Below, piece by piece: positions 23,875 to 58,145 of a stretch of DNA of 64,000 bases; position 1 is the first letter of the stretch, and the number at the start of each line of letters is the position of its first letter. Origin of the DNA: a virus; IMG/VR virus record IMGVR_UViG_3300042868_011225, positions 43,007-107,006 of that record, one strand, 5' to 3'. The notes beneath the pieces were generated by a model, which made no database searches, was not told the origin of the DNA, and was given only the letters and a program-made list of their open reading frames with translations. Both the position numbers and the translations under genes were made by a program.

Positions 23875-26013
23875 ATGAGTTACATTATAAACAGCACAAA
23901 CCCTTTTGTTAGTATAAAACTAACAGAAATTGGTAGACAACTATTAGCATCAGGACAGCTAAATTTTTCTTTTTATGGAATTGGAGATTCCGAAATAAAT
24001 TACGCTAGGGAATCTATCGTTGATGCTAACCCTACTAGTCCAATATTATCAGCAACAACTAGAGTACTTAGACCATTTGACCAACAACCAAATTTAAAAT
24101 ATTTCATTACTCCTAGTAATGATTTAACACCTTATAGACCTTTAACAAATGCTGATAAACACGTAATCAAAGCAGTTGTAAACAATCAAGCAAAAGAAAG
24201 AGGGTTTTTTGATAGTTATGGTGGAACATATAAAACACTTACTGGTGCTACGTATACACCGTATGTTCAAACATTATTTAATACCAAATTAACTGGTGGA
24301 ACTACATTAGATTTAAGTGCAACTACAGCATTTTCTGTGGGTGATTTAATCCTACTTAAAGTTACCAATACAAAATTAGGTAATATAGCTTCCGATGAAT
24401 CAACAAAGGCAATACCTAATTTATGGTTTAAAATTCAAGATAAAACAGCTACAAACGTAACTCTAGATAGAAAATTACCTAATTATTCAGCTCAAACAGT
24501 TACATCACAAGTTATTGTTTACAAGGGTGGTGAAGTTTATAACACGATAGCAACAGGTAACACTACAGCTTATTGGGATACAGGTACTCTTTCATTCCAA
24601 GCCAACGATAATATAACATGTCACGATATTCCAGTTTGGAATATGAATAATGTATGGAGAGAAAACCCAGCAGGTATTAGTGATTTAGTTACCTACGAAG
24701 ATTTTACTAAATTTGGTTCTTATCCGTTTTTAGGTTTTATGTATCCTTACAGTGAATATCTTCCAGACGTATCAGATGATACAACAACAAATTATTGCAA
24801 CACCAACGGTGTTAGTTATTTAGATGGTGTTAAAAAATCTATATCTATTGTTCATTTTACAAACAATAGCATATCTAACTTATATGGTGAATATTTATAC
24901 ATTGATGCAACTAAAAACAAACAAGTTGAAGTATTTTTACCAGAATTGATGTACCATAGAAGAAATTACAGAACAGCTAGTGGAACAACTATGGGTATGA
25001 AATTTATTGCTTCAGGACGTACAAAAACAATAGGAACTAGTAGTATTCAATACATCGATTTATTGGAAGATTCTACTATGATATCTTCAGGGTTAACTGC
25101 TACATCAGTTGGAAAGGTTTTCCCACAATTAAAATTAATAGTATTTGATAATGATGAAATTGTTTCTGCATTATCATATAAATCAAATAGAAACTGGACA
25201 CTTCCAGAATTGTCAGCTAATTTATCAGCCCCAAGTGGTGGAACTTCAACAGGTGTATTAAATGTTAACGAAACAATGTACTTAACATATAGTTTAGAAA
25301 ATATTAACAGCGTAAGTGGTTTAACTACTAGTATTCCATGTCAATCATATGTTAAAATTACCAATTTAACATCAGGACCTAAAGATATCGATTTTAGATT
25401 AATAGGTACAGATTTATTGCCGTATATGCGTAAAATTGAATCGGCTAATTATGATGGATACGGTTTCCATGCACGTAATTTTAAATTGGTTTACCAAAAA
25501 GTTTCTGACCCTTCGATTAGACCAGCTACAAATGCTTGGAAAACTTTTAATTTTACATCTACCGCAATAACTGGTGTTGCTGGTCAAACAATTGACCCTA
25601 AATTATTAGAAAATCAAACACCAGTAGTTAATGGCTTTGTTTTAAATAAAATAAATGATGCGTTAGCAACTACATTCGATATTACAGCATCGATGTCAAT
25701 GGCACCAAATGTTGATTCTAGTATCTTACAATTTGGTGATGAAAGATTATTCTACGGAAATATAAACACTTATATTGGTGCTACAATTTACAAAACGATA
25801 TTTGATATCAGTGTAGATTCTGGTTTATACAACGCCACATCCAATCCAACTAGAAGCAAAGATGCGGCAACAAATCCAGCTAACATTAAAATAAGTGAAG
25901 TTGGTATTTACGATACAAATAAAAATCTTGTATGTATCGGAAAACTTAGCAATCCAGTTGCTTTATTACCTGGAAGTAGTACAATAATGTTAGAATTAAG
26001 CATGGACTTTTAA
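23875..26013 (+). CDS. Tail-collar/fibre-attachment-like structural protein
   Basis: N-terminal KLTEIGRQLLA and C-terminal ISEVGIYD..KNLVCIGKL motifs. Confidence 0.65.
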   Translation: MSYIINSTNPFVSIKLTEIGRQLLASGQLNFSFYGIGDSEINYARESIVDANPTSPILSATTRVLRPFDQQPNLKYFITPSNDLTPYRPLTNADKHVIKAVVNNQAKERGFFDSYGGTYKTLTGATYTPYVQTLFNTKLTGGTTLDLSATTAFSVGDLILLKVTNTKLGNIASDESTKAIPNLWFKIQDKTATNVTLDRKLPNYSAQTVTSQVIVYKGGEVYNTIATGNTTAYWDTGTLSFQANDNITCHDIPVWNMNNVWRENPAGISDLVTYEDFTKFGSYPFLGFMYPYSEYLPDVSDDTTTNYCNTNGVSYLDGVKKSISIVHFTNNSISNLYGEYLYIDATKNKQVEVFLPELMYHRRNYRTASGTTMGMKFIASGRTKTIGTSSIQYIDLLEDSTMISSGLTATSVGKVFPQLKLIVFDNDEIVSALSYKSNRNWTLPELSANLSAPSGGTSTGVLNVNETMYLTYSLENINSVSGLTTSIPCQSYVKITNLTSGPKDIDFRLIGTDLLPYMRKIESANYDGYGFHARNFKLVYQKVSDPSIRPATNAWKTFNFTSTAITGVAGQTIDPKLLENQTPVVNGFVLNKINDALATTFDITASMSMAPNVDSSILQFGDERLFYGNINTYIGATIYKTIFDISVDSGLYNATSNPTRSKDAATNPANIKISEVGIYDTNKNLVCIGKLSNPVALLPGSSTIMLELSMDF

Positions 26014-51348: not shown

Positions 51349-51407
51349 AATTTATTTGTTTATATCAATAATTATACGTAATATTGCAAAAATATAAATA
51401 CATTACT

Positions 51408-52451
51408 ATGAATAAAAAAGATTATTATGAAGTTTTAGGATTAAAAAAGGGTGCTAATGCCAGTGAAATCAAAAAAGCCTATAGAACTCTTGCTAAAGAA
51501 TTACACCCTGACAAAGGCGGTGATGAAAATGCATTCAAAGAAGTTAGCGAAGCATATGAGGTTTTATCGGATACTGATAAGAAAAATAGATACGACCAAT
51601 TTGGTCACGAAGATTCTGGCGGTGGTGGCGGTGGTCATGACCCATTCGGGTTCAATGCATTTCGTAATGGATTTGGTGGATTTGGTCGTCCACAACAACC
51701 AGCAGAACGCATTGGTGACAATATGAATCTGCTTATTAAATTAACACTAGAAGAAATTTATACTGGTGTTAAAAAAACTTACAAATACTCCAGAAATGGT
51801 ACTTGCACGACATGTAGTGGTCATGGGGGTACAGATATCGATGATTGTAGTACATGTAATGGTAGTGGTGTTTATACTAGGATTCTACAAACACCAATAG
51901 GTATGATGCAACAACAAATGCAATGTCCAACGTGTTCTGGTTTAGGTAAATCATACAAGGTTCAATGTGGTGTGTGTAATGGTCAAGGTACCAAACCTAC
52001 TGAAGAAACAATTGAAGTTGATATCCCATCAGGTGTAGCTGAAGGAATGACATTTGTTATGTCTGAAAAAGGACAAGGTATCAAAGGTGGTAAATGCGGT
52101 AATTTACTTATCAACATCCAAGAAATCAAACATAAACAATACCAAAGAAGTGGAAATGATTTGAAACTTAATTTAAAGGTTAATTATCCTTTGCTTATTT
52201 TAGGTGGTAAGGTTGAAGTGGAACTTATTGAAGGTACTAAAATTAGAGTTTCAGTACCAGAATATAGTGATGTTGGTGGACATTTAAGGATACAAGGTAA
52301 AGGTATGAAATTCTTAAATCAAGACCAAAGAGGTGATATACTTATTACGTTAGGTGTTGAAGTACCTAAAAATTTAGATGATGATACCAAAGCAGTTTTA
52401 ATAGATTTAAAAGAAAAACTAGAAAAAAATGTTGGTACTATAGAAAATTAG
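51408..52451 (+). CDS. dnaJ: DnaJ chaperone
   Basis: [13 protein letters not shown]-rich linker, four CxxCxGxG repeats. Confidence 0.96.
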
Positions 52452-52507
52452 TAGTAAGTTTGCTAATATTAAAAATAACAATTACTTTATAAATTAAATT
52501 AAACAAG

Positions 52508-52918
52508 ATGGCAAAATTTGACGAACCATTTGAGGACACCCAAGCATTATATGACGAAAAAATCAAGGCTGTGGGGTTGGACCAATTCATTAACATTACC
52601 GTTGTTGTAAACAACACTGCGAAAGAACTTTTCAAGGTTAACAAAGCAAACGATTTATTGAAATACCGTACTGGTGACGATGTATTAATCGTTTTGAACG
52701 AAAAGATTTTCGAACAATTAACTGATGCTCAAAAACACATAGTTGTTGAAGATTCATTAGCTAGCATCCATTTTGATAGTGAAAAGGATAGACTAGTAAT
52801 AACAAAACCAGACGTAATTGCATACTCTGGTATCCTTTCTAAGTTCACGTTTGAAACTTGGAATGTGGTTAGAGAGTCCATTAAAACTCTTTATGCTGCT
52901 GAAAAATCCGAAGCTTAA
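52508..52918 (+). CDS. Hypothetical protein (weak resemblance to phage metallopeptidase fold, no HExxH)
   Basis: D..I.LNE..F..L...QK..V....L..I.........KPDV pattern. Confidence 0.55.
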   Translation: MAKFDEPFEDTQALYDEKIKAVGLDQFINITVVVNNTAKELFKVNKANDLLKYRTGDDVLIVLNEKIFEQLTDAQKHIVVEDSLASIHFDSEKDRLVITKPDVIAYSGILSKFTFETWNVVRESIKTLYAAEKSEA

Positions 52919-53217
52919 TGACTCGTGATGAAATAGCAGAAATTAATCCAGAAGCGTTATTGTGTGATGGATTCGATGAAGCAATTATAGGCATGGCCGA
53001 GAGAATTAACCTCGGCCCTGTTGTTGCTTATGATGTTGAAAAAATTATTGAAATTCTAATGAAAGATATGGAGGTTGAACCAGAAGATATCGAAGAAGGT
53101 CAAACAGAAGAAAGTGTTAAATATAGTATGGCACTTGAATATTTCGACTATAACATTATCGGTGCATGGATGGGTGAATTTACACCAGTATTCATAACCA
53201 CAAATTTAAATTATTAA
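52918..53217 (+). CDS. Conserved phage hypothetical protein
   Basis: DGFDEAIIG...VAYD..KII..L...A.EYF.YNI.GAW.GE.TP pattern. Confidence 0.75.
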   Translation: MTRDEIAEINPEALLCDGFDEAIIGMAERINLGPVVAYDVEKIIEILMKDMEVEPEDIEEGQTEESVKYSMALEYFDYNIIGAWMGEFTPVFITTNLNY

Positions 53218-53232
53218 AATTAAAACAAAAAT

Positions 53233-53952
53233 ATGAATTTAACAAATGACTTTAAACAATATGCCAAAGAGAATTTCGGTGTAACTGATTATGAATTCAA
53301 TACATGGGAAGGTATTCAACAAATGATTTACAACCCAACAGTATTATCTGGATTCCAAGGTGCCAATGCATCTTTAACACCATATATTCTTGAAGAAAGA
53401 GAAATGCGTGTAACACAAATGGATATTTTCTCTCGTTTGATGATGGACCGTATAATTTGGTTAGCTGGTCCAGTTAATGATAGAATGAGCACAGTAGTTC
53501 AAGCACAACTTATGTTCTTGGATAATTTAGAAGTAAAAGACATTACACTTCATGTTGACACACCTGGTGGGTCAGTTAAATCTGGGTTATCGATTGTAGA
53601 TGTCATCAACTACGTAAAATCTGAAATTGTTACAGTTAACACTGGTATGGCAGCAAGTATGGGAAGTATTTTATTGGGTGCTGGAACAAAAGGGAAACGT
53701 TATTCGTTGCCTAATAGTAGAGTAATGCTTCACCAAGTATCAACTGGTGCTTCTGGAAACATTCAAGATATCAGACGTTCAATTGCAGAAGGTGAAAAAT
53801 ATAATACTAAATTGTTTGCGTTGTTAGGTCAATATTGTGACAAAACACCAGAACAAGTGCTAGAAGATGCAAGTCGTGATTTATGGTTAGATGCTGAAGA
53901 AGCAAAAGCATACGGAATCATTGACGATATAATAACAACAAAGAAAAAATAA
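53233..53952 (+). CDS. clpP: ATP-dependent Clp protease proteolytic subunit
   Basis: DIFSRLMMDRII, PGGSV, GMAASMG (Ser), MLHQ (His), RDLW (Asp). Confidence 0.97.
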   Translation: MNLTNDFKQYAKENFGVTDYEFNTWEGIQQMIYNPTVLSGFQGANASLTPYILEEREMRVTQMDIFSRLMMDRIIWLAGPVNDRMSTVVQAQLMFLDNLEVKDITLHVDTPGGSVKSGLSIVDVINYVKSEIVTVNTGMAASMGSILLGAGTKGKRYSLPNSRVMLHQVSTGASGNIQDIRRSIAEGEKYNTKLFALLGQYCDKTPEQVLEDASRDLWLDAEEAKAYGIIDDIITTKKK

Positions 53953-54074
53953 AAATAATTACAAAAAAACTTGCATATAATAAAAAGATGTAGTACATTT
54001 GCACAAGATTTAAAGATATGTGGGTTTTTTAATGAAATCCACATATTTATAAATCACAAGTTCTTAAATATTAT

Positions 54075-54447
54075 GGGGATAAACGGTATCGACAGGGTAT
54101 GGTCGTAGATTGTAAGCATGTAGTGCTAGATTGGAAGCACTTTAATCTGTCTATTAAAAGATTGAATTGACAACGTATTTAACGTATCAGAAAATTTCTT
54201 GAACGAAGCATCAGTGTTTTCAACAAGAGAGTTAGCTGCAGCCTAAATGAAGCAAATGGTGGTAATCCACTTGATGGTGATAAATCACTAGAACCCACTT
54301 TCGTATGAGTGGTTAAGTCGGATACGGGTCATTATAGATATGGGACCAGCACTATCTTGAAAGATTGCCAGTTAAATGAATTGGATAAACATGTAGAAAG
54401 CCTTTTGTGAATGCTTTTGGACAGGGGTTCGACTCCCCTTATCTCCA
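54075..54447 (+). ncRNA. ssrA: tmRNA; tag reading frame 54169-54246 = (A)DNVFNVSENFLNEASVFSTRELAAA
   Basis: GGGGATA/TATCTCC acceptor stem with G3-U pair, GGTATCGAC 5' motif, T arm GGGGTTCGACTCCCC, tag ending LAAA-TAA; no encoded CCA. Confidence 0.95.
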
Positions 54448-54537
54448 CTCGTAATGATTCTGCTCAACAATAACCTTTGAGACAGAAATAACAAACCCCT
54501 GATAAGTCGCTTTTTCGGGGGTTAAATTTATCAAATA

Positions 54538-54560
54538 AAAAAAGGGCTTAATAGCCCTTT
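54538..54560. terminator. Bidirectional terminator
   Basis: aaaagggct-taat-agcccttt. Confidence 0.8.
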
Positions 54561-54562
54561 GA

Positions 54563-54613
54563 TTATTTTTTCGGTGGTTTACAACCACAACCTTTAGTGT
54601 TTTGTGTTTTCAT
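54563..54613 (-). CDS. Putative 16-aa peptide MKTQNTKGCGCKPPKK
   Basis: Has its own TATTTATA motif upstream (54645-54652 on the - strand) and a terminator right after the stop. Confidence 0.5.
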   Translation of the reverse strand: MKTQNTKGCGCKPPKK

Positions 54614-54687
54614 GATGTTAGATTTTAGATGATGTTATGTTATATATAAATACTTTACAAAATACATTTATATATTATATTTATATT

Positions 54688-54927
54688 ATGAATGAAATTA
54701 AATATACGGTGTCAATTCTAAACAGTAAATGGCATCCGATAAAAAGAAATGTAGAAATGGTTATCATCCCAAGAAGAGATGAATATGTCTATATGAATGA
54801 ACAATATTATGAAGTTCTTAATGTTGTTCATATGCTTAACGAAAAACAAGATATTTTTGTTATAGTTAAAGAAATGGTAAAAAATATTATACCACAAGAA
54901 CCTGAAAATCAGGACATTGAAAAATAA
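54688..54927 (+). CDS. Hypothetical protein
   Basis: Start moved to the ATG at 54688. Confidence 0.6.
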   Translation: MNEIKYTVSILNSKWHPIKRNVEMVIIPRRDEYVYMNEQYYEVLNVVHMLNEKQDIFVIVKEMVKNIIPQEPENQDIEK

Positions 54928-55022
54928 TTTAAAAATAGTTGCAAAAAAACTTGGAATATCATATATTTATTAGTAGATTTGCATATAATTAATAAAAACA
55001 CGTTCATACACATATTAAAAAA

Positions 55023-55241
55023 TATCTAAAAAGATGGTTTCTGCAAAAGAAACTAAAACAAACTAAATCAGATGAAGGAGTAAGGGTCTCCAGAGTTGTT
55101 CTTGAACCACATTGAAATAGCATGAGTTCATACATCCAACACGAAAGTGGCAAAATCCCAGATGTTGTGAGGGCATTTAAAATACTACTACCATGTACAC
55201 GCTAGTCAAGGAAAATAAAAGCGAACCACCATCTTGAGATA
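55023..55241 (+). ncRNA. CWGCAA end-stem RNA, copy 2
   Basis: TATCT-AAA-AAGATGGT-TT-CTGCAA ... ACCATCTT-G-AGATA; promoter element at 54974. Confidence 0.72.
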
Positions 55242-55247
55242 CACATA

Positions 55248-55315
55248 TTGACAAAAGAATCCGTTCAGCAATCAAACAACACTTTATTATGGAAAAACAA
55301 AGTGATTCTGGTCAA
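55248..55315 (+). ncRNA. CWGCAA end-stem RNA, copy 3
   Basis: TTGAC-AAA-AGAATC-CGTT-CAGCAA ... GATTCT-G-GTCAA. Confidence 0.7.
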
Positions 55316-55320
55316 CAATA

Positions 55321-55392
55321 TTATCGTGAGCACTAGGGAAGTGCGGCATCCATTGGGGGTGTTGGAAAAAGGTTCGAGTCCTTTACGATAGT
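55321..55392 (+). tRNA. Atypical tRNA/tRNA-like element, nominal anticodon TTG (Gln)
   Basis: Full cloverleaf: ttatcgt/acgatag, gcac/gtgc, gcatc-CATTGGG-ggtgt, aaagg-TTCGAGT-ccttt; but G8 and A33, and no CCA. Confidence 0.7.
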
Positions 55393-55409
55393 CTAATAAA
55401 ATTAAAAAC

Positions 55410-55727
55410 ATGTATAAAAACATTGAAGATAGACGAAGATGTGATGCAATTAGTAGACAAAAAAGAGTTGCAAAACAAAGAAAAGAAATCTTAGAGTTTT
55501 TAGGTGGTAAATGCATAGAATGTGGTTTTAATGATGATAGAGCATTAGCTATCGACCATAAATTTGGTGGTGGTACTAAAGAAAGGAAAGATATAGGCGG
55601 TGCTTATTATTCACATGTTCTAAAAAAATTAAAAGCAGGTACTGATGAATACCAAGTTCTTTGTTGTAATTGCAATCAAATTAAAAAGATTGTAAATAAT
55701 GAAGAAAGACTAAAAATACATAATTAA
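55410..55727 (+). CDS. HNH endonuclease (free-standing, homing-type)
   Basis: LGGKCIECG......IDH...YQVLCCNCN; sits between two tRNA genes. Confidence 0.85.
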   Translation: MYKNIEDRRRCDAISRQKRVAKQRKEILEFLGGKCIECGFNDDRALAIDHKFGGGTKERKDIGGAYYSHVLKKLKAGTDEYQVLCCNCNQIKKIVNNEERLKIHN

Positions 55728-55734
55728 AATATAA

Positions 55735-55807
55735 TGCGGAGTAGAGCAGTGGTTAGCTCGCAAGGCTCATAACCTTGAGGTCGGGGGTTCGATTCCTTCC
55801 TCCGCTA
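55735..55807 (+). tRNA. tRNA-Met(CAT), initiator type
   Basis: Cloverleaf with 1:72 mismatch (T:T), A11-U24 pair, caagg-CTCATAA-ccttg; CCA not encoded. Confidence 0.93.
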
Positions 55808-55811
55808 CTAA

Positions 55812-55875
55812 TTTTATTAGCAAACCCCCAATTTGGCGGTTTTAATTCCCATGAAACGGCATGGTGCTGGTAAAA
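55812..55875 (+). ncRNA. Putative three-way-junction RNA element B
   Basis: ttttattagca/tgctggtaaaa closing stem enclosing aacc..ggtt and ccatg/catgg hairpins. Confidence 0.45.
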
Positions 55876-55880
55876 GAAAT

Positions 55881-55946
55881 AAAGAATAGTTACAGCAAGT
55901 TAAAAAACTTTTAAATCTGAAAATTAAAACCAAACATGCTATTCTG
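55881..55946 (+). ncRNA. CWGCAA end-stem RNA, copy 4
   Basis: AA-AGAATAGT-TA-CAGCAA ... GCTATTCT-G; the outer stem is not evident. Confidence 0.65.
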
Positions 55947-55952
55947 AAACTT

Positions 55953-55982
55953 AAGAAGCCCATAGAAATATGGGCTTTCTTT
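55953..55982 (+). terminator. Intrinsic terminator closing the RNA cluster
   Basis: aagcccata-gaaa-tatgggcttt. Confidence 0.85.
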
Positions 55983-56012
55983 ATTAATAACAATAATTAA
56001 AAACAAAAACCA

Positions 56013-56694
56013 ATGGGACAAAAGATTCATTTAGAAATCCGTGATGCGGAAGGTGGAACAGATGCAAAGCTGTTGGTGGAACAGATGTTAGACATCTACA
56101 CCAAGACGGCAAGAATTAACAATTTAGAATGTAGCATAGTCGAAGAAAGAAGCGGCTTCGCCCATCTATGTCTTTAGCGGCCCAAAGGTAAAAGAGATAT
56201 TCCAGAATGAAGTAGGAAATCATCGTTGGCAAAGGGTCCCACCAACTGAAAAGAAGGGACGTGTTCACACCAGTTCAATTACCGTAGCAATAATGGAAGA
56301 AAACGATTATAAAGAGGTAGAATTATACCCTAACGAATATCGTTTAGAAACAACCAGAGGCACGGGAAATGGTGGCCAGCATAAAAACACTACAGATTCA
56401 TGTGTAGTAGTTACACACATAGCCACAAGCATCAAAGTAGTTCGAGATGGTAGAAATCAACACAAGAACAAAGAAGATGCGTTAAAAGAGCTTACAAAGC
56501 GTGTAAACGATTATTATAGAACAGGACACTTAGAAGAAAGCGTAGAAGAGCGAAGAGACCAAATCGGCAAAGGTGATAGAAGCGACAAACGTAGAACATA
56601 TAGAGTGAAAGATTCAATAGTAGTTGACCACATAACCAACAAAACAGCATCATTGAAAGATGTGCTTAGAGGTAAAATCGAATTACTATCATAA
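56013..56694 (+). CDS. RF1-like peptide chain release factor lacking domain 1, expressed via +1 frameshift at CTT-TAG-C (56172-56178); about 226 aa
   Basis: Frame 0 gives LEIR.AEGG.DAKL; the +1 frame continues NEVGNHRWQRVPPTEKKGRVHTS and GNGGQHKN..DS, ending RTY. Confidence 0.9.
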
Positions 56695-56699
56695 TTAAT

Positions 56700-56725
56700 T
56701 AAGTTCCCAATTTGGGAACTTTTTT
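56700..56725 (+). terminator. Intrinsic terminator
   Basis: aagttccca-att-tgggaactttttt. Confidence 0.88.
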
Positions 56726-56801
56726 ATTTTATAAAAGTTTGGTAGTTTAAAAAGTATTTCGTAAGTTTGATAAAATTATAAAAAAATAAAAATATAAAAT
56801 T

Positions 56802-57644: not shown

Positions 57645-58145
57645 ATGTTACCAAAATTACTTATTATAGGGAATATGAGACACGGCAAGGATACCTTTGC
57701 CGAAATTCTCAGAGATGAATTTGGATTAACCTTCATTTCATCATCACAAGCTGCAGCTGATATATTCATTTATGATGAATTAAAAGAAAAATACGGATAC
57801 ACAACATCGATTGAATGTTTTGAGGACCGTATGAATCATAGACAAGAATGGTATGAAATGATTTGCGATTATAACGTAGATGATAAAGCCAGACTTGCCA
57901 AAGGTATTTTAGAAATGGCTGATTGCTATGTTGGAATGCGAGATAGAGGTGAGATTGAAGAATGTATCAATCAAAACCTTTTTGATTTGGTTATTTGGAT
58001 TGATGCGAGTGAAAGACTTCCATTGGAAGATGTAAGTTCATTCAACATCGATAAATCATGTGCTGATATAATAATTGATAATAACGGTACAGAAGCCCAA
58101 TTTAGGGAACGAGTTAAAAGACTTGGAAAGATATTAAAAAAATAG
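57645..58145 (+). CDS. P-loop nucleotide (dNMP) kinase-like protein
   Basis: IIGNMRHGKDT Walker A, GMR...E, D.IIDNNG. Confidence 0.75.
   Translation: MLPKLLIIGNMRHGKDTFAEILRDEFGLTFISSSQAAADIFIYDELKEKYGYTTSIECFEDRMNHRQEWYEMICDYNVDDKARLAKGILEMADCYVGMRDRGEIEECINQNLFDLVIWIDASERLPLEDVSSFNIDKSCADIIIDNNGTEAQFRERVKRLGKILKK

Follow-up and report, generated by a model that had tools for sequence, protein, structure and literature searches.

We report a short RF1-type release factor gene, in a jumbo phage genome fragment, whose full reading needs a +1 slip at CUU-UAG-C. The evidence makes it quite probable that this gene specifies a release factor lacking domain 1, that the factor is made via a programmed +1 frameshift, and that the shift site serves as a sensor of RF1 activity within a negative-feedback loop. 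In textbooks and recent surveys, release-factor frameshift autoregulation is held to be peculiar to RF2. Judged from its sequence, the gene described here appears to be an RF1-type gene equipped with an amber version of the prfB cassette, conserved among relatives and belonging to a family in which frameshift and readthrough gates interchange.

Layout of the gene and its surroundings

The gene lies in what we call the window, i.e., the whole stretch of 64,000 nucleotides that was analysed, which corresponds to positions 43007-107006 of a 107-kb viral record (IMGVR_UViG_3300042868_011225). The features of the gene, in window coordinates, are as follows:

55955..55988, + strand: terminator-like hairpin and T-run (10-pair stem, then CTTTATT), upstream of the release factor gene and downstream of tRNA-Met (55735-55808)
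56013..56174, + strand: ORF1, frame 0, codons 1-54 (Met1-Leu54), start of release factor domain 2; Pfam PCRF over residues 4-91; under purifying selection
56169..56178, + strand: shift cassette TGT CTT TAG C, comprising the E-site Cys codon, the P-site CUU (predicted to slip onto UUU), the A-site UAG and a weak-context C
56175..56177, + strand: frame-0 UAG stop, the sole TAG-C among the stops of the 107-kb record
56176..56694, + strand: ORF2, +1 frame, codons 55-226 (remaining domain 2, domains 3 and 4), followed by a TAA stop at 56695-56697
56239..56247, + strand: PPT tripeptide (PxT-type stop-codon reader), residues 76-78, from the sequence and the RF1 alignment
56371..56379, + strand: GGQ motif (peptidyl-tRNA hydrolysis), residues 120-122, from the sequence and the RF1 alignment
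56701..56729, + strand: terminator-like hairpin and T-run, right after the stop codon of the release factor gene

All coordinates of the initial annotation held: from the ATG at 56013 the gene runs for 54 codons, the last being CTT (56172-56174), and is then interrupted by TAG (56175-56177) followed by C (56178). If T56175 is skipped, reading continues in the +1 frame as AGC GGC CCA..., giving the protein SGPKVKEIFQNEVGNHRWQRVPPTEKKGRVHTS...GGQ...RTY, which is open up to the TAA at 56695-56697; the joined product (P0001) has 226 residues, the approximate length that had been proposed. The initial annotation had also remarked that only the last 133 aa appear in the ORF track, and indeed a 133-aa ORF (56293-56694) is the only table-11 ORF listed for the downstream part. 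Reading through the TAG in frame 0 meets a TGA ten codons on and is thus unable to yield the protein, and the +1 frame is open only from 56140, which confines the shift to 56140-56177. The gene is flanked on both sides by terminator-like hairpins with T-runs.

The cassette is the prfB heptamer with UAG replacing UGA. Within the window the decamer occurs once, versus 0.13 occurrences expected by chance, so that rarity alone does not set it apart from a chance occurrence and the weight lies on its position and conservation. As the initial annotation had stated, no SD-like run was found near the shift site in the window. Stimulatory RNA structure was likewise not detected: RNAalifold predicted 0 pairs across 12 sequences, and z was -0.03 for the fold of the window's site. 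Given that no stimulator beyond the decamer was found, the shift efficiency may be only a few percent. The SD core is present in 3 of 89 genes of this phage, which equals background; its leaders are rich in A and have A at -3, which is the pattern of Bacteroidia. In a phage without SD usage, a missing SD stimulator at the shift site is to be expected. This Bacteroidota-like lack of SD usage is also the sole hint as to the host, and the initial annotation's ideas of a Flavobacterium host and of host RF1 being depleted or attacked are speculative. The named phage collection returned, as DNA-level relatives of the window, a tRNA match only. For F. johnsoniae, prfB frameshifting of ~7% without SD-ASD pairing has been reported, with an SD-less natural site being equally effective (PMC10798248).

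The release factor gene closes a translation and protein-quality-control cluster (window 51384-56694), which includes:

51384-52451: DnaJ
52508-52918: phage metallopeptidase
53233-53952: ClpP
54075-54450: tmRNA (Rfam, 90 bits)

Past the tmRNA, the order is tRNA-Gln(UUG), an HNH/EndoVII-like ORF, tRNA-Met and the release factor gene. The tag peptide that ARAGORN gives for the window's tmRNA is odd; the tags of relatives end in ...GELAVA. The gene may help to explain why jumbo phages bring along a termination factor of their own beside tmRNA, ClpP and tRNAs. That the source is a jumbo phage, as first proposed, fits with the size of the relatives (230-362 kb) and with the record being ~30% complete at 107 kb.

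Identity of the 226-residue product

We compared P0001 with domain and family profiles. It matches Pfam PCRF (5e-18, residues 4-91) and RF-1 (1.5e-22, residues 101-206), and its NCBIfam E-values are 1.6e-58 for prfA, 1.3e-30 for prfB, 7e-22 for prfH and 9e-5 for ArfB. More specifically, P0001 scores 198 bits against prfA (cut-off 400) and covers profile positions 104-333 of 347; all its NCBIfam scores fall below the equivalog cut-offs because only these positions are covered. The protein aligns unbroken across the shift site with solved RF1 chains in the PDB (residues ~112-340, E 3e-39), and its WQRVPPTE...GRVHTS pairs with RVQRVPATE...GRIHTS of E. coli RF1, i.e., with the PxT and the flanking Gln and His-Thr readers. 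The GGQ motif is invariant across the family. These results agree with the RF1-type assignment made in the initial annotation from the PPT motif.

P0001 starts at RF1 residue ~112, and the entire family begins at the same point. Neither P0001 nor the sequence upstream of the gene was found to encode domain 1, whose absence, already noticed at the outset, is evident from Pfam, the RF1 alignment and Foldseek alike. An AlphaFold2 model of P0001, built on 29 family sequences, has a pLDDT of 89.2. Its top Foldseek matches are ribosome-bound RF1 structures (TM 0.80-0.82, E 1e-21), on which it superposes over its full length, whereas RF2 fits more poorly and PrfH poorly (TM 0.60). On the strength of sequence and modelled fold, we take the gene product to be a class-I release factor of RF1 type that lacks domain 1 and has a predicted UAA/UAG specificity.

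Two other families were considered and rejected. PrfH (RF-H) resembles P0001 in having no N-terminal domain 1, in keeping the codon-recognition and GGQ domains and in its length (~200-226 aa); however, P0001 scores only 77.9 bits against prfH (cut-off 166.65) versus 198 against prfA, its model reaches TM 0.60 with PrfH versus 0.8 with RF1, and no RtcB gene lies among the neighbours of the release factor gene (ClpP, tmRNA, tRNAs and the HNH-like gene). To our knowledge, PrfH carries neither a PxT motif nor a recoding gate. ArfB/ICT1, the GGQ-only rescue factor, is matched at 22 bits (cut-off 100), and P0001 retains the PCRF/PxT domain.

Conservation of the cassette and gates of the family

To collect relatives, we scanned IMG/VR with P0001 and then with the family alignment, which gave 425 stretches that encode relatives, and the best 80 of these 425 were examined. 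Among them, 10 other distinct sequences carry TGY CTT TAG C at the same codon (L039, L048, L051, L053, L057/58, L059, L077/78, L080, L090 and L099), as does one 1.6-kb MAG contig (L175), so that the prfB-style +1 site proposed in the initial annotation proved to be conserved in position. L061 has TGT CTT TGA C at the cassette position. The cassette carriers are 48-92% identical to P0001 at the protein level, and in a 12-sequence nucleotide alignment TGY-CTT-T-RR-C is the only invariant block. Both halves of the gene are under purifying selection: in each, pS is 0.5-0.9 (near saturation) versus a pN of 0.04-0.4, and dN/dS, where computable, is 0.08-0.3 for ORF1 in frame 0 and for ORF2 in frame +1. 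All cassette carriers end in TAA, and frame-0 readthrough dead-ends within 2-10 codons. Residues 55-93, including the invariant PPTE, are strongly conserved and have no start codon in the +1 frame. Genome-wide, the 107-kb record (G000) and its 233-kb closest relative (G001) each gave a single CTT-stop +1 candidate that has long open frames before and after it, namely the release factor gene. Because the same decamer stands at the same codon in diverged relatives whose synonymous sites are near saturation, with purifying selection on both halves, the shift is best read as a programmed +1 frameshift and not as an error.

The gate count covers 75 distinct sequences, comprising the window, IMG/VR (best 80 of 425) and named huge phages. 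Approximately 70 of the 75 carry a stop-codon gate at codons 38-55, which is either an in-frame TGA/TAG or a CTT-stop +1 site:

In-frame TGA without a shift (one or two, at codons 38-53): 46 of 75 distinct sequences
In-frame TAG, with or without TGA: 4 of 75
+1 site of the window's type: 12 of 75
+1 site ~17 codons upstream: 8 of 75 (5 clear, 3 probable)
No gate: 5 of 75

TGA is never present in codons 56-226 in the family, and Trp73 is always TGG, which marks the internal stops as gene-specific gates rather than signs of a general alternative code. ORF statistics from 3-kb flanks alone were too noisy for use. Stop usage was also assessed genome-wide. The 91 non-overlapping ORFs of the 107-kb record end in TAA (80) or TAG (11) and never in TGA, which is nevertheless common out of frame (2,417 occurrences); every stop of the fragment is thus readable by an RF1-type factor. 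Translation of 11 other genes of the record truly ends at TAG, 8 of them with TAG-T, and the gate is the only TAG-C. In relatives, TGA stops are in use: the complete, 362.5-kb genome G005 has 373 TAA, 61 TGA and 42 TAG stops (TGA ~13%), and G001 has 295 TAA, 29 TAG and 19 TGA (TGA ~5%). We therefore rejected the idea that the relatives' in-frame TGAs stem from a genome-wide use of code 4, since G001 and G005 stop with TGA and ORF coverage barely changed under code 4 or 15. For the window's phage, readthrough of TAG or use of code 15 was likewise rejected, in view of the frame-0 TGA ten codons on, the 11 genes for which TAG is a true stop and the lack of ORF merging with TAG as sense.

In a quick tree, the window falls in a well-supported five-member clade, all five with the CTT-TAG-C frameshift. 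Gate types are intermixed on this tree, and the FS2_TAG type needs at least 4 changes; from this quick tree we make no claim as to a single or repeated origin of the CTT-TAG-C gate. At window positions Cys40 (56130-56132) and Cys53 (56169-56171), the codons of the frameshift clade are TGT/TGC for Cys rather than TGG for Trp, and most relatives have an in-frame TGA there; E. coli RF1 has Trp at the first of the two (codon 40).

The family extends to cellular genomes. Bacterial and archaeal genome records contain 105 stretches encoding relatives; at all frameshift sites among the 80 loci examined, a count that includes the window-type contig L175, the stop contexts are TGA-C (31), TAG-C (21), TGA-G (8), TAG-G (2), TAA-C (1) and TGA-A (1). 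A GC-rich, ~40%-identical branch, mostly Myxococcota and including complete chromosomes, carries an upstream site of canonical geometry, GGAGG-N3-CTT-TGA/TAG-C. An internal SD 3 nt before CUU is found in no site-II (window-type) member and is present as GGAGG-N3 in this site-I branch. The named huge phage L001 (LR745208.1, ~1700-1760) has an upstream SD-CTT-TGA-C site, but its PxT loop is wholly missing (QRTSNGRIHSS). In another subfamily (L004, L005, L062, L066, L071-L074, L079, L081 and L086-L088), the Gln of WQR-PPT is replaced by Val/Ile/Leu and HTS by QTS; these changes resemble the third-base reader of RF2, and such factors might read UAA only.

Proposed mechanism, alternatives and known parallels

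In prfB, slow decoding of the A-site stop allows peptidyl-tRNA-Leu to leave CUU and pair with UUU, and a C after a stop codon weakens termination. In the phage gene, the branch point would be reached once CUU (Leu54) occupies the P site and UAG, in its weak UAG-C context, has entered the A site. Termination by RF1 activity would then give a 54-aa dead-end peptide; alternatively, peptidyl-tRNA-Leu would slip from CUU to UUU, AGC would be read next, and the rest of the factor would be made in the +1 frame. As UAG is read only by RF1-type factors, i.e., the host's and presumably the phage's own, the yield of full-length factor should track UAG termination inversely, rising when it is slow and falling when it is fast. 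The site would thereby constitute a sensor and negative-feedback loop for RF1 activity, an amber counterpart of prfB autoregulation that would work without an SD stimulator, as in Flavobacteriia. The architecture of the gene, its homology, the conserved cassette and the purifying selection are observed; the P-site slip, the dependence on RF1 level and release on UAA/UAG are what we infer. Relatives encode tRNA-Leu(AAG), and G005 also tRNA-Leu(GAG), both of which read CUU. Among the tRNAs called by ARAGORN are unusual A34 species, namely Leu-AAG in G001 and G005 and Gly-ACC and Pro-AGG in G001. Such a gene would provide a natural SD-less +1 site for dissection in Bacteroidota, where a reporter system exists.

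Of the functions considered, RF1-sensing feedback appears the most likely for the window's gene. The initial annotation had gone further and treated the match of stop codon to the specificity of the factor as telling. The pairing of UAG with PxT does fit the window's clade, but it is not a family rule: PPTE is near-universal whatever the gate type, L061 combines it with CTT-TGA-C, and self-sensing is not the general logic of the family, because the gate of most PPTE relatives is UGA, a codon that a PxT factor is not expected to recognise.

The possibility that the gene is broken, by mutation or an assembly indel, or that it yields a 54-aa peptide and, from the ATG at 56293, a separate GGQ protein of 133 aa, is highly improbable. 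Gene callers and RefSeq do split such genes, and the 133-aa ORF is the only one listed downstream; however, the same extra base and decamer recur in 11 independent assemblies whose flanking sequences have diverged, pN is much lower than pS in each half of the gene, and the conservation of residues 55-93 is hard to reconcile with a second product, given that this segment lacks a +1-frame start. Transcriptional slippage is argued against by the T3 run, which is too short. A gate that is programmed, but in which the identity of the stop is secondary, is less easily set aside and overlaps with RF1-sensing feedback rather than excluding it, although we consider it on the whole unlikely as the main explanation. 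Such a gate may report host termination capacity or merely hold expression low, acting as a generic attenuator of a potentially toxic release factor or tying its synthesis to weak host termination. The mostly UGA-type gates of ~70 of the 75 distinct relatives, which share the same PPTE, together with the intermixed gate types and the at least 4 changes of FS2_TAG, favour this proposal, as does the lowered fitness of B. subtilis upon release factor overexpression (PMC12421855). The window's clade, in contrast, invariably has UAG followed by C, which is the one RF1-specific choice, and a plain attenuator needs no CTT-stop-C geometry.

The tRNA genes of the relatives bear on a further proposal, in which the gate is half of a switch with an amber-suppressor tRNA: tRNA(CUA) would decode UAG in frame 0, translation would run into the nearby stop, and RF1 synthesis would be off during UAG suppression. 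A tRNA with anticodon CUA and a normal 7-nt loop, often accompanied by tRNA-Cys(GCA), lies 1-3 kb downstream of the release factor gene in many relatives (L007, L008, L010, L013, L014, L018-L021 and L029), including the closest one (L015/L039 = G001; L039 6410-7837), and frame-0 readthrough always ends within 2-10 codons. In several close relatives this tRNA would decode UAG in frame 0 to a dead end, which also counts against RF1-sensing feedback. We nonetheless regard the switch as improbable, because G005, a complete genome, combines the CTT-TAG-C gate with a lack of any suppressor tRNA, and neither G000 nor G001 shows genome-wide in-frame use of TAG. No suppressor tRNA was found in the 107-kb record either, which at ~30% completeness is uninformative as to the whole genome, and the tRNA(CUA) block is missing at the syntenic position (58091-58138). 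ARAGORN also reported tRNA-like genes with 4-base (CCUA, AGAC) or 2-base anticodons (L050 2487-2563; G001 180238-180311 and 77076-77149; G005 25456-25530). On a wider and doubtful view, the short RF1-type factors of jumbo phages and Myxococcota would form a large, almost always stop-gated family, in which frameshift (CUU-UAG-C, CUU-UGA-C) and readthrough (UGA/UAG) gates interchange at nearly the same codon, host RF1 or RF2 activity is read separately and termination is taken over; the window's phage, with 0 of 91 TGA stops, would then rely wholly on RF1-type termination, e.g., with host RF2 disabled or bypassed.

Among known systems, bacterial prfB (SD-N3-CUU UGA C) likewise has a short ORF1 ending in CUU, a stop and C, and encodes the functional body in the +1 frame; its stop is readable by the encoded factor type, as is predicted for the phage gene, the arrangement is conserved across relatives, and an SD-less form works in Flavobacteriia (PMC10798248). 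In contrast to prfB, which encodes RF2, uses UGA and has its site at ~codon 25 in domain 1, the phage gene encodes an RF1-type (PxT) factor without domain 1 and has UAG at codon 54/55 in domain 2, with no SD and with a Cys codon (UGY) always before CUU. Prince et al. (2025) surveyed >12,000 genomes without finding a convincing prfA frameshift, and TAG occurred in 0 of their 8,164 prfB motifs (PMC12421855). According to Atkins et al. (2016), neither a UAG/RF1 counterpart nor an organism in which readthrough takes the place of release factor frameshifting is known (PMC5009743). The largest study of shift sites in E. coli used CUU followed by UAG as its context (PMC5009743). Our literature search found no description of frameshift-gated RF1-type genes.

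The nearest viral parallel is provided by Mimivirus R726 and Megavirus mg280, in which UGA-C readthrough is followed by CUU UAG C or CUU UAA C, respectively, in eRF1-type genes (Jeudy et al. 2012, PMC3521657). These are also virus-encoded class-I release factors with recoding, and G005/L053 has the same pair, i.e., TGA at codon 40 and then CTT-TAG-C, in a bacterial-type factor. However, the factors of these viruses of amoebae are of eRF1/aRF1 type with an unrelated fold, whereas here a phage encodes a bacterial-type RF1, and the copy in the window has the frameshift only. Papers on huge and recoded phages list RF1/RF2 genes without recoding (Al-Shayeb et al. 2020, PMC7162821; Borges et al. preprint 10.1101/2021.08.26.457843). 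The RF1 of the TGA-recoded 'Jade' phages and the RF1/RF2 of huge phages resemble the window's gene in lying beside tRNAs and translation genes, but they are described as standard-coded and uninterrupted, with no frameshift or stop gate reported, and the genome-wide recoding of 'Jade' phages is not seen here.

Recognition of the gate would also correct the annotation of such genes, whose two parts now appear separately, one as a small hypothetical protein and the other as a 'release factor-like' fragment. The homologue on Variovorax sp. WDL1 plasmid 2 (L253, NZ_LR594690.1, 2465-3694), which has an in-frame TGA at codon 49 and is directly followed by secB, is annotated in RefSeq as two CDS, i.e., a 56-aa hypothetical protein and a 172-aa 'release factor-like protein'. 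In a 362-kb relative (L043/L044, 2960-3163), a second, partial N-terminal release factor copy (residues 4-76), with TGA at codons 40 and 53, lies ~1 kb upstream of the full gene.
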